Shown here: positions 3,124-39,304 of the stretch, in pieces
Layout: the number at the start of each line of letters is the position of its first letter
Numbering within the stretch: the stretch's first letter is position 1
NCBI GenBank assembly: GCA_043765195.1
Contig: JAYUJN010000001.1
Coordinates: forward strand, 134,171 to 198,170
Reading direction: 5' to 3'
DNA from: Bacteroidota bacterium
Lineage (GTDB): Bacteria > Bacteroidota > Bacteroidia > UBA7662 > JAYUJN01
Length of the DNA: 64,000 nucleotides
The notes under the pieces: generated by a model
The model's database searches: none
The model's input: only the letters and a program-made list of their open reading frames with translations
Told to the model about the DNA's origin: nothing
Translations under genes and position numbers: made by a program

Positions 3124-4659
3124 ATGTTTGAACAAACTTTTAAAAACATAGACGACATTCTTTTTAAAGATGCTGGAGCAGATAGCGAGCTGGATTATAT
3201 AGGGCAAACTTCTTGGGTTATGTTTTTGCGTTATTTGCACGATTTGGAGCAAGACAAAGCCGATGAGGCTGGCTTGATGGGCAAAGGCTACAAACACATT
3301 ATAGATGAAGAATACCGATGGACAAACTGGGCAATGCCCAAAAATGCAGATGGCAAGCTGGATATTCACAAAGCCACAACGGGTATAGATTTGGTGGAAT
3401 TTGTGGATACAAAGCTATTTCCGTATTTGGCGGGGTTTAAACTAAAAACCGACAATCCGCAGACGATTGAGTACAAAATTGGTGAAATTTTTAGCGAACT
3501 AAAAAATAAAATACAAAGCGGATACAGCCTCAGAGACATTATAGAGCTGGCTGACGGCTTGCCTTTTCGCAGTAGCAAAGATAAACACGAACTGAGCCAC
3601 CTGTACGAAACCAAAATAAAAAACATGGGCAATGCAGGGCGAAACGGTGGGCAATACTACACGCCCCGCCCGCTTATACGTGCCATGATAGAAGTAATAC
3701 AGCCCAAAATTGGCGAAAAAATATACGACGGCGCTTGTGGTAGCGGCGGCTTTTTGTGCGAGGCTTTTGACTATTTGACCAAAGACAGACAAGCACTAAG
3801 CACCACCGATTTGCAAACGTTACAAACCAACACTTTTTATGGAAAAGAAAAAAAGAACCTGGCGTATGTAATAGGCATTATGAACATGATACTGCACGGC
3901 ATAGAAGCCCCCAATATTATACACACCAACACCCTTGGCGAAAACATTAGGGACATACAAGAAAAAGACCGCTACCATGTAATATTGGCTAATCCTCCTT
4001 TTGGTGGAAAAGAAAGACCCGAGGTGCAGCAAAATTTTGACATAAAAACAGGCGAAACAGCTTCGCTTTTTTTGCAACATTTTATAAAAAGCCTAAAAAC
4101 TGGCGGACGTACAGCCATTGTGATTAAAAATACTTTTTTGAGCAATAGCGACAATGCCAGCGTAAGCCTGCGCAAGCATTTGCTCGAAACCTGCAACCTA
4201 CACACCGTGCTGGATATGCCAGCAGGCACATTTACGGGTGCGGGCGTAAAAACGGTGGTGCTGTTTTTTACCAAGGGCGAGCCTACCACCAATATATGGT
4301 ATTATCAAATGAATGCTGGGCGTAGCATGGGCAAAACCTCACCCCTGAACGACGACGATATGGCAGAGTTTGTAGCCCTATCCAAGGAAAGGGCTGCCCT
4401 TGCGGCTGCCCCTACGGCTGCCCCTACGGCTGCCCCTACGGCTGCCCCTACGGCAGCCCCTGCGGCTGCCCCCAATACCGATAAAAGCTGGAGCGTAGCT
4501 ATCGCCGACGTGCCAACCCACAACTACGACCTAACCGTAAAAAACCCCAACCAAAAACAAGAGCAGGTGTACCGAAAGATGGAAGATATACTGGCAGAAA
4601 TGCAAATGCTGGACGAAGAAACCAACGAAATTTTGTGGGCTATAAAACAAAAGAGATAA
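3124..4659 (+). CDS. hsdM: Type I restriction-modification system methyltransferase subunit HsdM
   Basis: HsdM_N-like N-terminus. YYTPRPL, motif I DGACGSGGFL and motif IV NPPFGG are present. It is followed by specificity and restriction subunits. Confidence 0.95.
   Translation: MFEQTFKNIDDILFKDAGADSELDYIGQTSWVMFLRYLHDLEQDKADEAGLMGKGYKHIIDEEYRWTNWAMPKNADGKLDIHKATTGIDLVEFVDTKLFPYLAGFKLKTDNPQTIEYKIGEIFSELKNKIQSGYSLRDIIELADGLPFRSSKDKHELSHLYETKIKNMGNAGRNGGQYYTPRPLIRAMIEVIQPKIGEKIYDGACGSGGFLCEAFDYLTKDRQALSTTDLQTLQTNTFYGKEKKNLAYVIGIMNMILHGIEAPNIIHTNTLGENIRDIQEKDRYHVILANPPFGGKERPEVQQNFDIKTGETASLFLQHFIKSLKTGGRTAIVIKNTFLSNSDNASVSLRKHLLETCNLHTVLDMPAGTFTGAGVKTVVLFFTKGEPTTNIWYYQMNAGRSMGKTSPLNDDDMAEFVALSKERAALAAAPTAAPTAAPTAAPTAAPAAAPNTDKSWSVAIADVPTHNYDLTVKNPNQKQEQVYRKMEDILAEMQMLDEETNEILWAIKQKR
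4393..4473. repeat. 12-bp in-frame tandem repeat (gctgcccctacg-like, about 6.5 units) inside hsdM, encoding (AAPT)n
   Basis: Direct reading shows gctgcccttgcg, then gctgcccctacg x4, then gcagcccctgcg, then gctgccccc. It translates to ALAAAPTAAPTAAPTAAPTAAPAAAP. Confidence 0.9.
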
Positions 4660-5438
4660 TGCAAAAACTGCAATTGATAAAAACCGACCTTTTGCCCCAA
4701 TATTTGGAACAACTAACGGGTTTAGAAACCAAGTTTGAAGCCCTGCACGATGCTGAAATAAGCACCGATACCTTTAGTTTTTATACCTCGGTATCTGCTA
4801 TGGCAAGTAGTAAAATAGAGGGCGAATCGCTAGAAATAGACAGCTTTGTAAAGTACAAAATGCTAAATATAGATTACAAAAAAGAAATGGTAGAAAAGCC
4901 AAACGACCTTTATAATGCTTATTTGTATGCTCAAAAAAACGAATTAAGCGAAAAATATTTTTTAAATGCACATAAAATTATTGCTACTCATTTATTAGCC
5001 AAAAACAAACAAGGCAAATACCGTAAAGTAAATATGCTGGTAATGGAGCATAAAACATTTAGGGTACAATATGAAGCAGCACTGTTCGAAGAAGTAAATG
5101 GATTAATGAAAAAACTTTGGCAAGATATTACCACACTAATTAAAGCAAACTTAACCCATGAAGAAGTATTTTATTACGCCTCATTTATACACATTGCTTT
5201 TGTAAATATACACCCCTTTGAAGATGGTAATGGCAGAAGTGGCAGGCTGATAGAAAAATGGTTTATTGCCCAAAAACTGGGCGAAAAAGCTTGGTACCTA
5301 CAAAGCGAATTAAACTATTATAGAAACATAAACGACTATTACAAAAACCTAAACCGATTAGGAATTTTTTATGAACAACTCGACTACACCCAAGCCCTGC
5401 CTTTTTTATTAATGCTACCAAAAACATTTGAACTATGA
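4659..5438 (+). CDS. Fic/DOC family protein (probable AMP-transferase) with an N-terminal inhibitory-helix motif
   Basis: The canonical Fic motif HPFEDGNGRSGR is present. SSKIEG matches the (S/T)xxxE(G/N) autoinhibition motif. The ATG at 4659 overlaps the hsdM stop (TAATG), and the stop overlaps the hsdS ATG (ATGA). The track ORF begins at a GTG at 4635. Confidence 0.9.
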   Translation: MQKLQLIKTDLLPQYLEQLTGLETKFEALHDAEISTDTFSFYTSVSAMASSKIEGESLEIDSFVKYKMLNIDYKKEMVEKPNDLYNAYLYAQKNELSEKYFLNAHKIIATHLLAKNKQGKYRKVNMLVMEHKTFRVQYEAALFEEVNGLMKKLWQDITTLIKANLTHEEVFYYASFIHIAFVNIHPFEDGNGRSGRLIEKWFIAQKLGEKAWYLQSELNYYRNINDYYKNLNRLGIFYEQLDYTQALPFLLMLPKTFEL

Positions 5439-6586
5439 AACAAGATTGGCAAATAAAAAAATTGGGGGAGGTGTGCGATAAGGCTTCTTCTAATGTTTCT
5501 CAAAATAAATTAGAAAATGACAATGGTGAGTATCCAATTTATGGTGCAAGTGGGTTTATAAAAAAGGTTAGTTTTTATCATCAACCAAAACCTTACTTAT
5601 CTATTGTAAAAGATGGCTCGGGTGTGGGTAGAATTACAAAAATGGACGCTTTTACTTCTGTAATCGGTACACTTCAATATATTTTACCAAAAGAAGGAAT
5701 TGATTTAGATTATTTGAATTACTCCTTGATGTCTGTTGATTTTAAAAAGTATGTAGCAGGTGCTGCCATTCCACACATTTATTTTAAAGATTATCAAAAC
5801 GAACCTTTTTTGTGGGTTCCCCTCGCCGAGCAGCAGCGCATCGTAGCGTATTTAAACGATACCTTTGGCAAGCTAAACCAAGCCAAAGCCAATATTGCCC
5901 AAAACCTACACAATGCCAAGCAGCTTTTTGAAAGTGAACTCAATAGAATTTTTACCGAAAAAGGCGATGGCTGGCAAGAGAAAAAGCTGGGGGGAATTTG
6001 TGAAACGGGTGCAGGAGGCACACCATTGAAACAACATAAAAGCTATTATGAAAATGGCAATATACCGTGGCTAAGAAGTGGGGAAGTTTGTGAAAAAGAA
6101 ATTCATAAATCAGAATTAAAAATAACTGAATTGGGTTTAAAAAACTCTTCTGCAAAAATGTTTCCAATAAATACTGTTTTAATAGCAATGTATGGTGCAA
6201 CCGCAGCACAAGTAGGAATTTTAAAATTTGAAGCCTGTACGAACCAAGCAGTTTGTGGAATTTTACCAAATAAAAATTCAATTCCAGAATATATTTATTA
6301 CTGTTTTTTATCAAAAAAAGAAGAATTAATAAGCAAAGCCGTTGGCAATGCGCAGCCTAATATTTCGCAAGAAAAAATTAGAAATACTTCAATTCCGATT
6401 CCACCTCTTGCGACCCAAGAAGCCATAGTTTTGGAGTTAGATGCGCTATCTGCCCACACGAAACAATTAGAAAAAGTGTACCAACAAAAATTAAATAACA
6501 TAGAAGAATTAAAAAAGCGTATATTAGCAGATGTTTTTTCAGTCGGGGCAAGTGTGGGGGCAACCCTTGCGGTTGCCCAAAAATGA
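5435..6586 (+). CDS. hsdS: Type I restriction-modification system specificity subunit HsdS (two target-recognition domains)
   Basis: There are two TRD halves, each followed by a conserved coiled-coil spacer (LAEQQRIVAYLNDTFGKLNQAK... and LATQEAIVLELDALSAHTKQLEK...). The last 14 codons and the stop lie in repeat sequence. Confidence 0.9.
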   Translation: MKQDWQIKKLGEVCDKASSNVSQNKLENDNGEYPIYGASGFIKKVSFYHQPKPYLSIVKDGSGVGRITKMDAFTSVIGTLQYILPKEGIDLDYLNYSLMSVDFKKYVAGAAIPHIYFKDYQNEPFLWVPLAEQQRIVAYLNDTFGKLNQAKANIAQNLHNAKQLFESELNRIFTEKGDGWQEKKLGGICETGAGGTPLKQHKSYYENGNIPWLRSGEVCEKEIHKSELKITELGLKNSSAKMFPINTVLIAMYGATAAQVGILKFEACTNQAVCGILPNKNSIPEYIYYCFLSKKEELISKAVGNAQPNISQEKIRNTSIPIPPLATQEAIVLELDALSAHTKQLEKVYQQKLNNIEELKKRILADVFSVGASVGATLAVAQK

Positions 6587-6790
6587 TAAAGGGGCAACCA
6601 AAGATAAGGGCAACCAAAGATAAGGGCAACCGCAAGGGTTGCCCCCACAGATATACCCAAATGATGAAGATAAGGGCAACCCTTGCGGTTGCCCAAAATG
6701 ATAAAGGGGCAACCGCAAGGGTTGCCCCCACAGATATACCCAAATGATGAAGATAAGGGCAACCCTTGCGGTTGCCCAAAATGATAAATA
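6542..6790. repeat. REP/REPIN-like array: five copies of a 21-nt hairpin (GGGCAACC-CTTGC/GCAAG-GGTTGCCC) in alternating orientation, including an 83-bp unit duplicated in tandem
   Basis: The hairpins lie at 6558-6578, 6624-6644, 6674-6694, 6707-6727 and 6757-6777. Units 6624-6706 and 6707-6789 are identical at 82/83 positions. Two half-sites (gggcaaccaaagataa) lie at 6592-6623. The array sits directly upstream of a RAYT-like gene. Confidence 0.9.
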
Positions 6791-6800
6791 AAATATTAAA

Positions 6801-7322
6801 ATGGCATATAACCCAGCAATTCATCACCGCAGGTCTATCCGACTAAAAGGCTACGACTACTCTCAGGCAGGGCTGTATTTTATAACCATTTGCTGTGAGT
6901 ATAGAACGCACCGTTTTGGAAAAATTGAAAATAGTGAAATGAAATTAAATGAATTTGGAAACATTGCATACAATCAATGGATAAAATTGGCGGAGCGGTT
7001 TGCAAATTTTGAATTAGATGTATTTCAAATAATGCCCGACCATATTCACTGTATAATACTGTTGAATAAAGGTGAAGGTGCAACCGTCGGGGCAACCCCC
7101 ACACTTGCCCCGACGATGGGCGACATTGTAGGGGCATATAAATCGTTGGTATTTAATGAATGTTTGAAAACTTGCAAACTAAAAAACGAAATAATGGGCA
7201 AGCTGTGGCAACGCAATTATTACGAAATTATAATTAGAGATGAACGAGCCTACCAAAACATTGCGAACTACATCATTAATAATCCTGCAAAATGGACGAA
7301 AGGCAAATTTAGCAACCAATGA
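6801..7322 (+). CDS. REP-associated tyrosine transposase (RAYT), IS200/IS605-like Y1 HUH transposase family
   Basis: The N-terminus HHRRSIRLKGYDYSQAGLYFITIC, the HUH motif PDHIHCII and the Tyr motif WQRNYYEIIIRDE match my recollection of the RAYT/Y1_Tnp family. The gene is immediately preceded by the palindromic repeat array. Confidence 0.85.
   Translation: MAYNPAIHHRRSIRLKGYDYSQAGLYFITICCEYRTHRFGKIENSEMKLNEFGNIAYNQWIKLAERFANFELDVFQIMPDHIHCIILLNKGEGATVGATPTLAPTMGDIVGAYKSLVFNECLKTCKLKNEIMGKLWQRNYYEIIIRDERAYQNIANYIINNPAKWTKGKFSNQ
7085..7115. repeat. Perfect 11-bp-stem hairpin inside the RAYT coding sequence
   Basis: CGTCGGGGCAA (7085-7095), loop CCCCCACAC, TTGCCCCGACG (7105-7115). Positions 7096-7114 are the exact reverse complement of 6542-6560 at the hsdS 3' end. 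Confidence 0.9.
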
Positions 7323-9709
7323 ACGAACAAGAAACCAGAACCCAATATATATTACCCGCTTTGCAAAAAGCAGGCTGGGGCATTGTGCAAGGCAGTAGCA
7401 TACGAGAGGAGTTTCCTATATCAAAAGGCAGGCTAATTGGGCATGGGCAGTGCACCAAACCCGACAAAGCCGATTATGTATTGCAATACAAAAACCGAAA
7501 CTTGGCGGTTATAGAAGCCAAAAAAAGAGATTTGTATTATACCGAAGGCGTGGCACAAGCCAAAGATTATGCGGGGCGGCTACAAATTCGGTTTACGTAC
7601 AGCACCAACGGTTTGCAGATTTATGAAATGGATATGCACCAAGGTACGGAGGGCGATGTGTTGGCTTTCCTTAGCCCAGATGAGCTGTGGAACAGAATTT
7701 TTGGCGAAGAAGAAAAAGCAAAACCGCAGGTAGCCAAGTTGCAAGAAAACTTACACAGCATTCCGTTTGAAACCAAAAACTTAACCAAACCGCCCCGTTA
7801 TTACCAAGAAAATGCCATTAACAATGTAAGCCAAGCCATTGCCGAGGGTAAAACCCGCATATTGCTAACCCTTGCCACGGGCACGGGCAAAACAGCCATT
7901 GCTTTTCACATTGCTTGGCGGTTGTTTAAAGCCAAATGGAACATAAAAGGCGACGGACAGCGCAGCCCACGCATATTGTTTTTAGCAGATAGAAATATAT
8001 TGGCAAACCAAGCCTTTAGTTCTTTTAGCGAATACAATGCTTTCGATGAAGATGCCTTGGTGCGTATTAAGCCGAGTGAAGTGAAAAAGAAAGGCAAAGT
8101 GCCTAAAAATGGAAGTATATTTTTTACCATATTTCAGAGTTTTGTTTCTGAAAACAATGGCGAAACAAATTTTGGGCAATACGAAAAAGACTTTTTTGAT
8201 TTTATAATTATAGATGAGTGCCACCGTGGCGGTGCCAGCGACCAAAGTAGTTGGAAAGCCATTTTAGATTATTTTAGCCCAGCCGTGCAATTGGGTTTAA
8301 CGGCAACACCCAAACGAAATCAAAACGTAGATACTTACGATTATTTCGGCGAGCCAGTGTACGTATATTCGCTAAAACAAGGCATAAACGATGGCTTTTT
8401 AACACCATTTAAGGTAAAACAAATAGCCACCACAGGCGATAGCTATATTTATAGCCCTGACGATGAAATAATACAAGGCGAAGTAGAAGAAGGCAGAGAG
8501 TATAACAGAAATGAACAAAACCGAGTAATACAAATCATGGAAATTGAGCGCTATCGGGTTCAAACGTTTATGAACTTGATAGACCAAAACCAGAAAACAT
8601 TGGTTTTTTGTGCCACACAAGCCCACGCTTTGGCAGTGCGTGATTTGATTAATCAGCTTTCAAAAAGTAAAAATACCAACTATTGCCACAGGGTTACGGC
8701 AGACGATGGCGAACGGGGCGAACAACATTTAAGAGATTTTCAGAACAATGAGAAGAATATTCCAACCATACTTACTACATCGCAAAAATTGAGTACGGGC
8801 GTAGATGCACCCGAAATAAGAAATATCATTTTGATGCGACCCGTAAAACAAATCATAGAATTTAAACAAATTATAGGCAGAGGTACTCGGTTGTACGATG
8901 GCAAAGATTATTTTACGATTTATGATTTTGTAGAAGCCTACAAAAACTTTCAGGACGATGAGTGGGACGGACCACCATTAGAACTCGAAACACCAGACTT
9001 GAAACCTGAGCCAAAACAATGCAAAGACTGTGGTCAAAATATTTGTATATGCCTTAAAGAACCAGAGCAGCACTACTGCTTTTGTAACCAAGAGCCTTGT
9101 GTGTGCGATAACCCACAAAAGCGAATGATAAAAATAAAACTGGGCGACGGAAAAGTGAGAGAACTCGATAGTACGGTTAGAACCCTGTTTTATAGTGCCG
9201 ATGGCACGCCAATTAGTAGCGAAGAATATTTGCAAAACTTGTTTGGTGCATTGCCCGAAATTTTTAAAAACGAAGACGAATTAAGAACAATTTGGAGCAA
9301 ACCCGACACAAGAAAAAAATTATTAGAGGAACTGAAAGAAAAAGGATTTGCAGAAGAGCAATTAGAAGCCTTTCAAAAAATATTAAATGCCCAAAATAGC
9401 GATTTATACGATGTTTTGGCGTATGTGGCTTTTAAATCCCCCATTTTAGAAAGAACTGAAAGGGCGAAAAATGCAAGAATACATTTGTATAATTACGATG
9501 CAAAGCAACAGGAGTTTTTAAACTTTGTGTTGAATAAATACGTTGGTTCTGGCGTTTATGAATTAGACGAAGAGAAATTATCGACGCTGCTTATATTGAA
9601 ATACAACGCCATAGACGATGCAAAACAAGTGCTTGGCGACATTGATTTGATTAGAAATACATTCACGGGTTTTCAAACTTATTTATACGGAAAAACGATT
9701 TTGATATAA
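7319..9709 (+). CDS. hsdR: Type I restriction enzyme R subunit HsdR (SF2 helicase/nuclease) with an EcoEI-R-like C-terminal domain
   Basis: N-terminus MNEQETRTQYILPALQKAGW, Walker A LATGTGKTAIAF and the DEAH-box variant IIIDECHRG are present. The ATG overlaps the RAYT stop (ATGA). Confidence 0.95.
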   Translation: MNEQETRTQYILPALQKAGWGIVQGSSIREEFPISKGRLIGHGQCTKPDKADYVLQYKNRNLAVIEAKKRDLYYTEGVAQAKDYAGRLQIRFTYSTNGLQIYEMDMHQGTEGDVLAFLSPDELWNRIFGEEEKAKPQVAKLQENLHSIPFETKNLTKPPRYYQENAINNVSQAIAEGKTRILLTLATGTGKTAIAFHIAWRLFKAKWNIKGDGQRSPRILFLADRNILANQAFSSFSEYNAFDEDALVRIKPSEVKKKGKVPKNGSIFFTIFQSFVSENNGETNFGQYEKDFFDFIIIDECHRGGASDQSSWKAILDYFSPAVQLGLTATPKRNQNVDTYDYFGEPVYVYSLKQGINDGFLTPFKVKQIATTGDSYIYSPDDEIIQGEVEEGREYNRNEQNRVIQIMEIERYRVQTFMNLIDQNQKTLVFCATQAHALAVRDLINQLSKSKNTNYCHRVTADDGERGEQHLRDFQNNEKNIPTILTTSQKLSTGVDAPEIRNIILMRPVKQIIEFKQIIGRGTRLYDGKDYFTIYDFVEAYKNFQDDEWDGPPLELETPDLKPEPKQCKDCGQNICICLKEPEQHYCFCNQEPCVCDNPQKRMIKIKLGDGKVRELDSTVRTLFYSADGTPISSEEYLQNLFGALPEIFKNEDELRTIWSKPDTRKKLLEELKEKGFAEEQLEAFQKILNAQNSDLYDVLAYVAFKSPILERTERAKNARIHLYNYDAKQQEFLNFVLNKYVGSGVYELDEEKLSTLLILKYNAIDDAKQVLGDIDLIRNTFTGFQTYLYGKTILI

Positions 9710-9730: not shown

Positions 9731-11005
9731 ATGAGTAACGAAACAAAAATAAAATGCCCCAATTGCCACACCGAAATAGATGTGAACAATGTGCTGTCGA
9801 GCCAGGTGAGGGCGGAGCTTCAATCGGAGTTTAGTGCGGGATTTGAAAAGGAGCAAGCCGAACTCAAAAGAAAAGAAGCCGAGCAGGCGAGAAAAGAAGC
9901 GGAGTTTGAGCAGAAACGAGCCAATCAAAATGTGATTTTTCGGGAGCAAGTGGATAAACAGCTCAAAGAAGAACGGAGCGTGCTGGAATTGAGCCTAAAA
10001 ACGAAATATGAAAAAGAAAAATCAGAGGAGTTTTATAGCTTACAAAAAGAACTAAAAGAAAAATCAGAGCAGGTAATAGAATTGAATGCCAGCAAGGCGG
10101 AAATTGAAAGGCTAAAACGAGCCAATGCGGAGGCTAAATCGTTGGCGGATGCCGAAGCCCAAAAAATGATAACCGAAACCTTGAATACTGAAACAGAACG
10201 GATAGAAAAGCAAGTACAAGACAAAAAGGAGTTAGAGATTAATAAGCTGGTAAAGCAACTGGACGACCAAAAAAGGCTGACCGAAGAAATGAAACGCAAG
10301 CTAGAGCAAGGCTCGATGCAGCTACAAGGCGAGGTGCAGGAGCTGGCGATTGAAGGTTGGCTGGCGGATAATTTCCCGCTGGATACCGTTGTGCCAGTGG
10401 GAAAAGGCGTGCGGGGCGGCGATTGCCGCCAGATTGTAAACACAAGGTCCAAAGAAAACTGCGGCACAATATACTACGAGAGCAAGCGCACCAAGGATTT
10501 TGGCAGGGACTGGATAGAGAAATTTAAAAACGACATTCGGGAGCAAAACGCAACCGTGGGCGTGCTTGTAACCACCGCCATGCCGCCAGGCATGGACCGC
10601 CTGGGCTTGCGAGATGGCATCTGGATTTGTAGCTACGAAGAGTTTAAGGGGCTTTGTTTTGTGCTTCGAGAAAACATTATTGCCCTCGACCTCGCCGTGG
10701 CTTCGCAAGAAAACAAGGGCGATAAAATGCAAATGCTCTACGATTATTTGACCAGCAATGAGTTTAAATTGCAGGTGGAGGGCATTATGGAGGGCTACAA
10801 ACAAATGCAAGACGACCTAATTAGCGAGCAACGTGTGATTACGGGAACTTGGAAAAAGCGGGAAAAACAACTGCAAAAAGTGCTGAACAACACCACTTAT
10901 ATGTATAGTTCGCTGCGGGGCATAGCGGGCAATGCCATACAAGCCATAAAATCGCTGGAACTGCCCGAGGCGGAGGCGGAGGATACTGACTTTGAAGAAG
11001 CCTAA
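9731..11005 (+). CDS. DUF2130-like protein: N-terminal CxxC, long coiled coil, and a C-terminal nuclease-like domain
   Basis: IKCPNCHTEIDV lies at the N-terminus, followed by a roughly 200-aa E/K-rich coiled coil. The C-terminal segment GGDCRQIV...GTIYYESKRTKDF..W matches what I recall of DUF2130. The gene starts 21 nt after hsdR. Confidence 0.75.
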   Translation: MSNETKIKCPNCHTEIDVNNVLSSQVRAELQSEFSAGFEKEQAELKRKEAEQARKEAEFEQKRANQNVIFREQVDKQLKEERSVLELSLKTKYEKEKSEEFYSLQKELKEKSEQVIELNASKAEIERLKRANAEAKSLADAEAQKMITETLNTETERIEKQVQDKKELEINKLVKQLDDQKRLTEEMKRKLEQGSMQLQGEVQELAIEGWLADNFPLDTVVPVGKGVRGGDCRQIVNTRSKENCGTIYYESKRTKDFGRDWIEKFKNDIREQNATVGVLVTTAMPPGMDRLGLRDGIWICSYEEFKGLCFVLRENIIALDLAVASQENKGDKMQMLYDYLTSNEFKLQVEGIMEGYKQMQDDLISEQRVITGTWKKREKQLQKVLNNTTYMYSSLRGIAGNAIQAIKSLELPEAEAEDTDFEEA

Positions 11006-36769: not shown

Positions 36770-39304
36770 TTAAATGTCGTTTTCTTTTAAAAATACCTCG
36801 AGGCTGGCTATGCTATCGAACATGACCTCTCGGGCTTTGCTGCCCTCGAACTTGCCTACAATGCCCAGTGCCTCGAGCTGGTCCATGATGCGCCCCGAGC
36901 GTGCGTAGCCCAGTTTTAGTTTGCGCTGTATGAGCGAGGTAGAGCCTTGTTGGTTGTTTACGATGGTGCGGGCTGCGTCGGCGAGCATTACGTCGTATTC
37001 GCCTATGTTTTCCATTGATTTGTGGCTTTGGTCGCCGTCTTTGCCCACAAACTCAGGCAGTATAAAGGCGCTTTCGTAGCCTTGTTGTTCGCCTATAAAG
37101 TTGGCTACTTGCTCTACTTCTTCGGTGGTAATGTAGGCGCATTGTATGCGTATCACGTCCGAGCCTTGTGCCAGTAGCATATCGCCACGCCCTACGAGCT
37201 GCTCTGCGCCTTTGGTATCGAGTATGGTGCGTGCGTCTATTTGTGAGCTTACTTTAAAGGCTATACGGGCGGGGAAGTTGGCTTTTATTGTTCCCGTAAT
37301 GATGTTTGTACTGGGGCGTTGGGTGGCTATGATAAGGTGTATGCCCACGGCACGGGCGAGCTGCGCCAGCCTGGTGATGGGCTGCTCTACTTCTTTGCCT
37401 GCGGTCATCATTAGGTCGGCAAACTCATCTACCACCAGTACAATGTAGGGCAGGTAGCGGTGTAGTTTTTCGGGGTTTAGCCTTCGGGCTACAAATTTTT
37501 GGTTGTATTCGGCGATGTTGCGCACGCTGGCATCTTTTAGCAGGTCGTAGCGCAGGTCCATTTCTATGCAAAGGGAGTTTAGGGTGTTTACTACCTTGGC
37601 GGTGTCGGTGATTATGGCATCGTCTTCGTTGGGTAGCTTGGCGAGGAAGTGCCGCTCTATGGTTTTAAAGATGGATAGTTCTACTTTTTTGGGGTCGACG
37701 AGTACGAATTTTATTTGGGAGGGGTGTTTTTTGTAAATGAGTGAGATGAGTATGGTGTTTAATCCCACGGATTTGCCTTGCCCCGTAGCGCCTGCCATGA
37801 GTAGGTGGGGCATTTTGGCGAGGTCGGTTACAAATACTTCGTTGGATATGGTTTTGCCCAGTGCTATGGGCAGTTCGTAGGTGCTGTTTGTAAATTTTTC
37901 GCTGGCTAATACGGTGCTTATGCTTACGGTTTCTTTGTTGTGGTTGGGTACTTCGATGCCTATTGTGCCTTTGCCTGGCATTGGGGCTATTATTCTGATG
38001 CCGAGTGCGGCGAGGTTTAGGGCGATGTCGTCTTCGAGGTTTTTTATTTTGGAGATGCGCACGCCTGCGGCTGGCACTATTTCGTAGAGTGTTACGGTGG
38101 GACCTACGGTGGCTCTGATGCGTTCTATTTCGATGCCGAATTGTCGGAGGGTTTCTAATATTTGTTTTTTATTTCGGTTTAGCTCGTCTTCGTCCATTTT
38201 TAGTGGGTTGCTGGTGGGCGGGTCGAGCAGGCTTAGGGTTGGGTATTGGTAGTGCGAGAGTTCGGCTGTGGGGTCGTAGGGCTGGGTGGTGGCGGGCAGG
38301 CTGGGGTGCATGGGCGGCAGCTCGGGTGCGGGCGTGCTTATGAGTTCGAGCTCTGGCTCGGGTGTGGGCGTGAGTTCGAGCTCTGGCTCGGGTATGGGCG
38401 TGCGGAGTTTGTTGCGGGGCGGCACTTCGTCGGCGGGCGTGAGGTAAGGCTCGGGGCTGGGGGTGTGTACTTCGAGCGGGAGGTCGCCTATGGGCGTGCG
38501 GGTGTGCGTGGGCGCAAATGTGGGTGCGGGCGCAAGTGTGTGGTCGAGGGTGGAAGGCTCGGGCGTGAATAGCGTGGAGGCAGACGTGGGCGAGCTACCA
38601 CGTGCGGGCGTGCGCAGTGGCTCGGGCGTGCTATCACGCCTAAAACCCTCGAACAAACCCTCAAAATCAAATTTTACCCCGAAATAAACCCTCAAAACCA
38701 AAAACCAAGCAAAAACCAGCACCAAAAATGTACCAAAAACACCCAAAAAACCCATCAGCCAGCTGCTGCAAAAATACCCAAACATTCCGCCCCAAATGCT
38801 CCATTTACCCAACAAAAAACCGAGTGTAAACGAAACGGCGACCATGAGCACAAAGGCATTGACGTAATTTTTTTTGTAGTTAATGGCAAAAGTGTAGCCC
38901 AAAATGCGCAAACCAAACAAACCCAACATATACGCCAAGGCAAACGAGCCAAAGCCAAAACTGCCATGAATAATCAAATGCGAGAGCAGCGCACCAAAAC
39001 GCCCAAGTAAATTGTGCGCCACGAGGTCTTTGTTGGTCAAAAACTCAAAAATGCCGCTGTCCGCCACCAAATTTTGGTCGTTTTGCCACACAAAAAGGTG
39101 CGAAAAAAAAGCCACAAACATACAGCCAGCCAGCAGCACGCACAAGCCGCCCAAAACCAAACGCACACGCTCCGTAGGCTCAAAACGCACCCACGCCAGC
39201 GGGCGTGGCGCACTTGTGCGCTTGTTTTCGGGCTTCAACCTATTTTTTTCGGTGGGTGCACTCGTTGCCTCCTCCACCTGAACACTGCGTAATTTATTTG
39301 CCAT
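36770..39304 (-). CDS. ftsK: DNA translocase FtsK
   Basis: N-terminal TM domain, a Pro/Thr/Glu-rich linker, a motor domain with Walker A AGATGQGKSVGLN, and a C-terminal gamma domain (SLIQRKLKLGYARSGRIMDQLE). Confidence 0.95.
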   Translation of the reverse strand: MANKLRSVQVEEATSAPTEKNRLKPENKRTSAPRPLAWVRFEPTERVRLVLGGLCVLLAGCMFVAFFSHLFVWQNDQNLVADSGIFEFLTNKDLVAHNLLGRFGALLSHLIIHGSFGFGSFALAYMLGLFGLRILGYTFAINYKKNYVNAFVLMVAVSFTLGFLLGKWSIWGGMFGYFCSSWLMGFLGVFGTFLVLVFAWFLVLRVYFGVKFDFEGLFEGFRRDSTPEPLRTPARGSSPTSASTLFTPEPSTLDHTLAPAPTFAPTHTRTPIGDLPLEVHTPSPEPYLTPADEVPPRNKLRTPIPEPELELTPTPEPELELISTPAPELPPMHPSLPATTQPYDPTAELSHYQYPTLSLLDPPTSNPLKMDEDELNRNKKQILETLRQFGIEIERIRATVGPTVTLYEIVPAAGVRISKIKNLEDDIALNLAALGIRIIAPMPGKGTIGIEVPNHNKETVSISTVLASEKFTNSTYELPIALGKTISNEVFVTDLAKMPHLLMAGATGQGKSVGLNTILISLIYKKHPSQIKFVLVDPKKVELSIFKTIERHFLAKLPNEDDAIITDTAKVVNTLNSLCIEMDLRYDLLKDASVRNIAEYNQKFVARRLNPEKLHRYLPYIVLVVDEFADLMMTAGKEVEQPITRLAQLARAVGIHLIIATQRPSTNIITGTIKANFPARIAFKVSSQIDARTILDTKGAEQLVGRGDMLLAQGSDVIRIQCAYITTEEVEQVANFIGEQQGYESAFILPEFVGKDGDQSHKSMENIGEYDVMLADAARTIVNNQQGSTSLIQRKLKLGYARSGRIMDQLEALGIVGKFEGSKAREVMFDSIASLEVFLKENDI
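38342..38401. repeat. 30-bp tandem duplication in the FtsK linker-coding region
   Basis: gagttcgagctctggctcgggtgtgggcgt (38342-38371) and gagttcgagctctggctcgggtatgggcgt (38372-38401) match at 29/30. They encode PEPELEL repeats on the minus strand. Confidence 0.85.

Follow-up and report, generated by a model that had tools for sequence, protein, structure and literature searches.

The window analysed here is a 64-kb stretch (64,000 nucleotides) of contig JAYUJN010000001.1 from a Bacteroidota bacterium. At positions 6542-6800 it carries an array of short hairpins, directly upstream of a gene for a REP-associated tyrosine transposase (RAYT), where REP stands for repetitive extragenic palindromic sequence. 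We find it very likely that this array is a REP cluster, akin to the bacterial interspersed mosaic elements (BIMEs), and that it belongs to a REPtron of subclass 2.4, that is, a RAYT gene together with its cognate REPs. By itself the array is a textbook case of a REP cluster beside a RAYT and adds a Bacteroidota-type example of a subclass already described. Array and gene lie inside a type I restriction-modification (R-M) operon, and we also report how often related RAYT genes occupy such a position.

The REP array and the adjacent RAYT gene

Positions 6542-6800 hold five exact copies of the 21-nt palindrome GGGCAACCCTTGCGGTTGCCC, composed of GGGCAACC-CTTGC-GGTTGCCC. Each copy has an 8-bp stem and a 5-nt loop that reads CTTGC or GCAAG according to orientation, and the orientation alternates along the array, with hairpins starting at 6558(+), 6624(-), 6674(+), 6707(-) and 6757(+). 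Chance would provide 0.01 matches to the 21-mer in the window even with three mismatches tolerated, and none of 100 shuffles reached the observed count. REPs are short GC-rich palindromes of 20-40 bp that form stem-loops, and the 21-nt element has each of these properties. The distance from each of the five hairpins to the RAYT gene downstream is between 23 and 243 nt, inside the limit of about 1 kb used to associate a REP with a RAYT. On the strand that reads CTTGC, three of the five copies carry a GTGG tag 5' of the hairpin (Table 1).

When folded as single-stranded DNA, the array gives two long hairpins of the kind formed by paired REPs (REPINs), of 26 bp and 21 bp, and one single hairpin, with a folding free energy (dG) of -75.7 kcal/mol (z = -13). 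The long hairpins correspond to inverted doublets, in which 6553-6578 pairs with 6624-6649 and 6674-6694 with 6707-6727. The hairpins are separated by spacers of 45, 29, 12 and 29 nt that are themselves repeated, and the array has a tandem composition of 83 bp x2 and 16 nt x2.5. The two 83-bp units (6624-6706 and 6707-6789) agree at 82 of 83 positions, G6706 versus T6789 being the sole difference, and the segment 6592-6623 consists of two exact 16-nt copies of the half-site GGGCAACCAAAGATAA. The five elements, the alternation of their loops, the near-perfect 83-bp duplication and the two truncated half-sites had all been listed in a first-pass annotation made from the sequence alone, and each was recovered exactly at the positions given there.

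The gene downstream of the array encodes a protein with the motifs of a Y1 HUH enzyme: the HUH motif H81-I-H83, WQ at 136-137, and the catalytic-tyrosine motif YIINNP at 157-162, in which Y157 is the tyrosine. Pfam Y1_Tnp matches it at 27.8 bits, above the cut-off of 23, and its best NCBIfam family is REP_Tyr_transpos (E = 1.8e-18). Among solved structures the best sequence match is E. coli TnpA_REP (4ER8), whose HuH and Tyr motifs align with H81-I-H83 and Y157. The AlphaFold model has a Y1 HUH fold (predicted local distance difference test, pLDDT, 71; predicted template modelling score, pTM, 0.68). Its top 30 matches in the Protein Data Bank (PDB) are all IS608, ISDra2, IS200 or TnpA_REP; 4ER8 has the highest query TM-score, 0.52, with 22% identity over the structural alignment. 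Residues H81, H83, W136, Q137, R138, Y157, N161 and P162 are invariant across 30 homologs. Judged by motifs and predicted fold, the gene encodes an intact Y1 HUH enzyme. The family is very large, with 7,988 of 8,000 scored candidates reaching E <= 1e-10. Among the 120 best matches the protein length varies between 167 and 263 aa, and "REP element-mobilizing transposase RayT" is the name given in several sources. The closest homologs come from Pedobacter and other Bacteroidota. The 64-kb window holds this one RAYT copy and no second one.

Subclass 2.4, which equals group 4 in the RAYT classification of Bertels, has the motifs NH[IFV]H, WQ and YIxNNP (Quentin et al., 2018, PMC6006769). The protein studied here contains WQ and YIINNP, and its first motif is DHIH, with D for N. 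REPs of the subclass are canonical long ones, tagged 5' with GT[AG]G and closed at the foot by three G-C pairs, and "double-foot" variants also exist (PMC6006769). The same study reports in-frame REPs between the HuH and Tyr motifs as unique to subclass 2.4, and lists Cyanobacteria, Bacteroidetes and scattered other phyla as hosts (PMC6006769). The window shares with these REPtrons the protein motifs, the tagged GGG-footed REPs and a variable insert with short repeats, but differs from them in its DHIH motif, in the degenerate state of its intragenic REP and in having REPs upstream only.

The variable insert between the HuH and Tyr motifs corresponds here to residues 92-101, encoded by 7086-7115 and modelled with low confidence as a loop between the HUH strand and the next helix. 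In the 30-member alignment the insert after the HUH strand is hypervariable. Many members read VGATLAVAQ...RATARVAPT at this place, which is the translation of the same REP in both orientations. In the window, the insert is encoded by a double-foot REP that has degenerated but keeps the 5' arm of the array (Table 1). An exact 19-nt inverted repeat, GTCGGGGCAAGTGTGGGGG, is also present at 6542-6560 and 7096-7114, where it brackets the array and the first ~295 nt of the RAYT gene. This match would fit a common origin of the array's left boundary and the intragenic remnant as copies of one double-foot REP; alternatively, the repeat may represent the ends of a former unit.

The same palindrome is found far beyond this genome. 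In a survey of one genome per species, the exact 21-mer was present in at least 120 stretches, each of at most 8 kb, in which 140 occurrences were listed. Hosts among the matches listed include Chloroflexota, Bacteroidota, Planctomycetota, Acidobacteriota, Desulfobacterota, Clostridia, Chlorobi and others, and some of the metagenome-assembled genomes among them carry the 21-mer on several contigs. GTAG precedes 106 of the 140 listed copies (76%) on the CTTGC strand. An inverted tagged partner lies within 150 nt of 48 of the 140, and extra copies of the 3' arm follow the hairpin in 24 of the 140, as in the half-site anatomy of 6592-6623. A RAYT gene is present in 15 of the 120 listed stretches; the remaining 105 have none within their span of up to 8 kb, and the REP therefore appears dispersed away from the gene in other genomes. 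By these sequence comparisons the 21-mer is a genuine dispersed REP in other genomes, and its identity across phyla suggests either horizontal spread or strong constraint from the enzyme. Tandem repeats of a short spacer plus the 3' stem arm were also seen after the REP in L006, L032, L056, L059, L077, L103, L116, L120 and L216/L217 of our numbered comparison loci. In other genomes (L001-L120) the exact 21-mer often adjoins other GGGC...GCCC REP variants.

The link between REP and gene was assessed in 80 related RAYT loci picked by protein similarity alone. Of the 80 loci, 65 have GGG-footed perfect hairpins inside the gene and 23 have them in the 400 nt upstream; 7 have them in the 400 nt downstream and 5 at other places in the flanks. 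In the 19 loci with both upstream and intragenic hairpins, the two have a stem arm in common in 14 of 19, against 3.1 expected from shuffled pairing, and none of 2000 shuffles reached 14. At the level of sequence, REP type is shown to co-vary with the RAYT gene across loci, which supports reading the pair as cognate. The first-pass annotation had proposed that the array is a REP or REPIN type paired with the adjacent RAYT, and had regarded an absence of copies from related genomes as grounds for giving this up. The proposal is supported by the Y1 HUH protein, the REP anatomy, the shared arms in 14 of 19 loci and the orthologous locus L216 described below, and the copies in other genomes are numerous and mostly GTAG-tagged.

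The same RAYT is present in five other assemblies, whose shared DNA matches the window at 99.8-100% identity. Array length varies among these sequences: L121, L122 and L123 have one 83-bp unit, and the window and L125 have two. HsdM, encoded in the same operon, is 511 aa long in the window and 507 aa in L122, which has one 12-nt unit fewer. These differences in unit number point to ongoing repeat turnover, with collapse of repeats in short-read assemblies as an alternative. The description of the RAYT as active or recently active, given in the first-pass annotation, would have as its whole basis the perfect identity of the repeats and the one-versus-two-unit difference.

By analogy with TnpA_REP of E. 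coli, S. maltophilia and Marinomonas, we propose that the RAYT enzyme acts on the hairpins of the array. On single-stranded DNA it would bind the tagged strand of each folded REP, take the 5' tetranucleotide as a guide, and cleave and rejoin nearby. New REP copies would in this way be seeded preferentially close to the RAYT's own gene. Such seeding would explain why REPs cluster upstream and recur inside the gene, and probably also where the REP-derived insert in hsdM came from. The simplest view of the 83-bp duplication and the half-sites is that they are secondary tandem amplifications, produced either when identical 21-nt hairpins undergo slipped-strand or unequal exchange, or when the RAYT cleaves and religates DNA at the hairpin feet.

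Several observations weigh against assigning the locus to a subclass 2.4 REPtron with a working REP-RAYT pair. The protein scores 66.8 bits against REP_Tyr_transpos, for which the curated cut-off is 80, and its DHIH departs from the NH.H seen in 28 of 30 aligned homologs. Two of the five REPs (copies 3 and 5) have ATAA in place of the GT[AG]G tag, and the GTGG tag found here is rare elsewhere, preceding one of the 140 listed copies. No REP lies downstream of the RAYT gene, which makes this a one-sided REPtron. The difference between one and two 83-bp units could result from short-read assembly collapse, or from slippage. Finally, no further full copy of the 21-mer occurs anywhere in the 64-kb window outside the array, nor does any other GGG-footed perfect 8-bp hairpin of this sequence. 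The motif had been described in the first pass as confined to this locus, which holds for the full motif; its stem arm GGGCAACC recurs once outside the array, inside the RAYT gene at 7090, and a three-mismatch relative lies inside hsdM at 4391. For group 4 RAYTs the only linked repeats reported are low-copy ones, with about 14 occurrences per replicon (Bertels et al., 2017, PMC5581495), and because of this reported low copy number the lack of extra copies in 64 kb is uninformative.

Part of this evidence also suits a simpler account, which we rate as possible without favouring it: the array could be the product of local slippage or unequal recombination between identical hairpins, next to a RAYT with no present role because it is inactive or acts elsewhere. 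The tandem units (83 bp x2, 16 nt x2.5, at 100% identity) and the variation in copy number between near-identical assemblies are what such a process would leave, and the two untagged copies, the absence of other copies in 64 kb and the low-copy habit of group 4 repeats agree with it. Slippage, however, amplifies a REP that is already there: it leaves unexplained the presence of the REP and of its stem arm inside the gene, the locus-by-locus co-variation of upstream and intragenic REPs, and the dispersal of the GTAG-tagged 21-mer in many genomes. An inactive RAYT would also sit poorly with catalytic residues that are all intact.

RAYT genes in type I restriction-modification operons

The array and RAYT gene stand in a same-strand operon in the order hsdM, Fic gene, hsdS, REP array, RAYT, hsdR, DUF2130 gene (Table 1). 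With hsdM, hsdS and hsdR on one strand this is a type I R-M operon. Its HsdR belongs to the EcoAI/FtnUII (type IB) family, with 70% identity to proteins that bear the name EcoAI/FtnUII-family R subunit. The hsdS frame crosses the first hairpin and stops at 6584-6586, so that the protein ends in ...ADVFS-VGASVGATLAVAQK. The REP-like insert in hsdM adds 26 aa of Ala/Pro/Thr that are absent from an HsdM ortholog 83% identical to that of the window.

Table 1. Coordinates of the REP array, the RAYT gene and the R-M operon in the window
Feature	Position	Strand	Remarks
hsdM, methyltransferase subunit	3124..4659	+	N6_Mtase domain
In-frame REP-like insert in hsdM	4391..4472	+	hairpin GGGCTGCC-CTTGC-GGCTGCCC (7/8 pairs), then ~6.8 copies of GGCTGCCCCTAC
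Fic-domain guest gene in the hsdM-hsdS interval	4635..5438	+	matches PADLOC SoFic and PDC-S04 models
hsdS, specificity subunit	5435..6586	+	Methylase_S; last 14 codons (VGASVGATLAVAQK) from left boundary and REP copy 1
Left boundary GTCGGGGCAAGTGTGGGGG	6542..6560	+	inside hsdS 3' end; exact reverse-complement match; 19-mer unique in window
REP copy 1, GTGG tag and GGGCAACC-CTTGC-GGTTGCCC	6554..6578	+	translated as HsdS C-terminal tail
Half-sites GGGCAACCAAAGATAA x2	6592..6623	.	read on the minus strand: REP copy 2, then 2 extra [spacer + 3' arm] units
REP copy 2, GTGG-tagged	6624..6648	-	26-bp REPIN-type long hairpin with copy 1
83-bp unit duplicated in tandem	6624..6789	.	REP(-), 29-nt spacer, REP(+), 12-nt spacer; 82/83
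REP copy 3, ATAA instead of tag	6674..6694	+	21-bp long hairpin, 12-nt loop, with copy 4
REP copy 4, GTGG-tagged	6707..6731	-	minus-strand tag
REP copy 5, no tag	6757..6777	+	ends 23 nt 5' of RAYT start codon
RAYT / TnpA_REP gene, 173 aa, Y1 HUH, subclass 2.4 / group 4	6801..7322	+	assigned from motifs, profiles and predicted fold
Degenerate double-foot REP GTCG-GGGCAACC-CCCACAC-TTGCCC-CGAC	7086..7115	+	inside RAYT; same 5' arm as array
hsdR, EcoAI/FtnUII-family type IB restriction subunit	7319..9709	+	ResIII and EcoEI_R_C; ATG overlaps RAYT stop (ATGA)

The junction between hsdS and hsdR was compared across orthologous operons whose HsdR and HsdM are 79-81% and 83-88% identical to those of the window. 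In L218/L219 the junction is empty (hsdS TAA-C-ATG hsdR); in L213-L215 it holds a RhuM-Fic gene; in the window it holds the RAYT with a GGGCAACC-type REP. In L216/L217 it holds a RAYT 46-56% identical to that of the window, with its own REP, GTAG-GGGCGAAT-CGC-ATTCGCCC, both upstream and inside the gene. These loci also have half-site repeats, (GGTACGGGCGAT)n, and their RAYT overlaps hsdR by an ATGA as in the window. In the L216 operon (HsdR 81%, HsdM 88% identical), hsdS stops at the TAG of the GTAG tag, whereas the tag in the window is GTGG and hsdS therefore reads on through the hairpin. On sequence grounds the REP-RAYT module is shown to be an insertion at the hsdS|hsdR junction, which replaces the last hsdS codons and creates a stop/start overlap with hsdR. 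By the same comparison this junction is a hot slot for insertion in which the REP type follows the RAYT. The Fic guest gene seen between hsdM and hsdS in the window is also present in the orthologous operon L213.

This arrangement recurs widely. Homologs of hsdM, hsdS or hsdR were found in 25 of the 80 RAYT loci, nearly all of them directly adjacent to the RAYT gene, and every hsd match in the set shares the RAYT's strand. Most commonly the genes run hsdS-RAYT-hsdR, frequently with a stop codon that overlaps the next start codon, and some loci have hsdM-RAYT-hsdS. The control, 105 REP-bearing stretches without a RAYT, contains hsd genes in two (odds ratio 23, p = 1e-8). A Pfam census of the 121 open reading frames that are immediate neighbours of a RAYT ranks HSDR_N first (15) and Methylase_S second (14), followed by SWI2_SNF2 with 5 and every other family with at most 3. 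Like arrangements also occur in L004, L120 and L130-L132, the 25 loci of the set of 80 lying within L135-L212. Two of the closest RAYT homologs are found outside R-M contexts.

The literature that we searched, which covers few subscription-journal papers, contains no description of RAYT genes in type I R-M operons. An R-M operon context like that of the window is undescribed in the two reference studies of this group (PMC6006769 and PMC5581495), and the main text of PMC6006769 never uses the word "restriction". The tie between subclass 2.4 RAYTs and type I R-M operons is strong and, apparently, unreported.

What this tie means can be put forward tentatively. RAYT/REP modules of subclass 2.4 might, instead of being random passengers, be specifically recruited to, or target, type I R-M junctions (mostly hsdS|hsdR), where they would be co-transcribed and translationally coupled to hsdR and could have a function linked to restriction; or the R-M cassette might be the vehicle that carries them between phyla. 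We hold this reading, in either form, to be a possibility rather than the expected outcome. If a restriction-linked function exists, it could consist in tuning of hsdR through the REP stem-loops or in an accessory single-strand DNA nuclease. If the cassette is a vehicle, this would explain why the RAYT group is patchily distributed and why distant phyla have an identical 21-nt REP. A single ancient fusion of RAYT and R-M genes, inherited together ever since, is disfavoured by the pairwise identities of RAYT and HsdR, which are uncorrelated across 10 loci (rho = -0.06, p = 0.63); with so small a sample this is weak evidence.

The position of the array also raises the question of its effect on the message. 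The stem-loops probably affect hsdS/hsdR mRNA, because the array is co-transcribed with the operon. Differential mRNA stabilisation is the classical role of REPs. One could go further and suppose that the array now serves the operon as a co-opted RNA element, one that protects the hsdM-hsdS message from 3' exonucleases or lowers read-through or translation of hsdR and so keeps restriction below modification. The setting lends itself to this idea: the operon is tightly packed on one strand, hsdS enters the array, the RAYT stop overlaps the hsdR start, the predicted fold is very stable, and other loci embedded in R-M operons also have REPs between hsdS and RAYT. Yet the sense strand has no T-tract after the hairpins, an upstream REP is missing from many of the RAYT loci embedded in R-M operons, and orthologous operons exist in which the slot is empty. 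We consider co-option unlikely. As intrinsic terminators for the operon the hairpins were rejected, the terminator-like sites being on the antisense strand only. No sigma-70-like promoter was found in 6540-6800, in a scan that leaves Bacteroidota-type promoters outside its scope.

A last account makes the RAYT itself the functional guest of the R-M system. PrrC is such a guest gene in the type I R-M operon EcoprrI, and the RAYT would, by analogy, be a single-strand DNA nuclease serving as an accessory defence or back-up effector, with the REPs as regulatory or decoy substrates. The enrichment described above (25 of 80 versus 2 of 105 loci) could be read in this way, as could the rank of HSDR_N and Methylase_S among neighbouring families, the same-strand and often overlapping genes, and the RhuM-Fic gene in the same slot of an orthologous operon; the lack of RAYT-HsdR co-divergence in the small sample suggests repeated recruitment. 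Against this stand the many close homologs that are not beside R-M genes and the RAYT's complete set of features of a REP-processing enzyme, with its own REPs that co-vary with it. PADLOC has no model that matches the RAYT, and we likewise rejected the gene as a component of a known defence system. Hitch-hiking on mobile R-M cassettes could also produce the enrichment, as could an insertion slot that is permissive. We regard a guest effector role as improbable.

Related systems and discarded candidates

The closest described relatives outside subclass 2.4 are the E. coli REPtron and its BIMEs (PMC3333891, PMC3479197, PDB 4ER8, PMC8266576), in which a Y1 HUH enzyme likewise stands by clustered, alternating REPs with a 5' tetranucleotide. 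The E. coli enzyme binds the folded single-stranded REP in a strand-specific manner, is guided by the tetranucleotide, and cleaves and transfers strands at a nearby CT or CA (Corneloup et al., 2021, PMC8266576). REPs of E. coli are imperfect and bulged, number hundreds of copies and flank the gene on both sides, whereas the REP of the window has a perfect 8-bp stem and a 5-nt loop, and the RAYT lacks the group 2 C-terminal tail. The REPIN-RAYT systems of Pseudomonas and enterobacteria (groups 2 and 3) resemble the array in that two inverted REPs form a long hairpin beside a RAYT, which is single-copy there. Their REPINs occur tens to hundreds of times per genome and are vertically inherited; the REP described here is found nowhere else in the 64 kb and has an exact sequence shared across phyla.

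The GTAG super-family includes GTAG-tagged REP families, REPtrons, a GTGG variant and intragenic REPs (Di Nocera et al., 2013, PMC3733652). Its clusters are dimers reiterated in tandem with flanking DNA, and head-head dimers are known (PMC3733652). The tag and stem-loop are shared with the window, but the stem found here is not in the text of that study, which includes no GTAG families from Bacteroidetes. A further parallel is offered by the link between TnpA_REP and prochlorosins in picocyanobacteria (Laurenceau et al., bioRxiv 10.1101/2020.03.09.984088), a recurrent pairing with rapidly diversifying genes in which the partners are phylogenetically unlinked, as RAYT and HsdR are in our small sample. 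That case differs from the present one in that it concerns lanthipeptide precursor genes, in another host group and not within an operon. As for other guest genes of R-M operons (PrrC, RhuM, Fic), they are likewise extra same-strand genes between hsd genes, but the guest in the window is a HUH enzyme of the REP-processing kind and brings its own repeats.

Elements of the IS200/IS605 family of insertion sequences (IS608, ISDra2) have the same Y1 HUH fold, with subterminal single-stranded hairpins and a 5' guide tetranucleotide. We rejected the locus as such an element: there is no downstream hairpin, the RAYT stop overlaps hsdR, and neither tnpB nor a second copy is present in the window. A CRISPR array was discarded on the alternating orientation, the repeated spacers and the lack of a nearby cas gene. 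For a known RNA family, Rfam returned only sub-threshold look-alikes, the best at 33.7 bits against a gathering score of 50. A hairpin-driven shufflon or phase variation of hsdS was dismissed, as no second copy or fragment of hsdS and no second RAYT occur in the 64 kb. Phage origin was likewise set aside, the tagged 25-mer being present in only 4 stretches (3 contigs) of a viral collection.

Some features around the locus deserve a mention of their own. The DUF2130 gene (9731-11005, same strand) lies directly 3' of hsdR and encodes a protein with a long coiled-coil N-terminus and a weak LmuB-like match in PADLOC (E = 6e-5). An N6_N4 DNA methyltransferase is encoded at ~591-1616 of the window, and a GmrSD_N/HNH gene and a DDE transposase lie just to the left of it (L121:1-6300), which gives the region a setting resembling a defence island. 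A 30-nt tandem repeat of ~2.7 copies at 38320-38409 (Tandem Repeats Finder score 111-117) is unrelated to the REP.

Implications of the R-M link

The recurrent embedding of these RAYT genes in type I R-M operons is the part of this work that merits following up. What RAYTs do for the cell, and how their non-classical groups spread between phyla, are questions that the link to R-M operons makes testable. A natural series of operons is available for this purpose, in which the same slot is empty, is taken by another guest gene, or holds one of two different RAYT/REP pairs, and the REP-derived in-frame inserts in hsdS and hsdM open the same questions to experiment. The locus is also a compact set of substrates for biochemistry, with tagged and untagged REP copies, half-sites and a double-foot remnant side by side.

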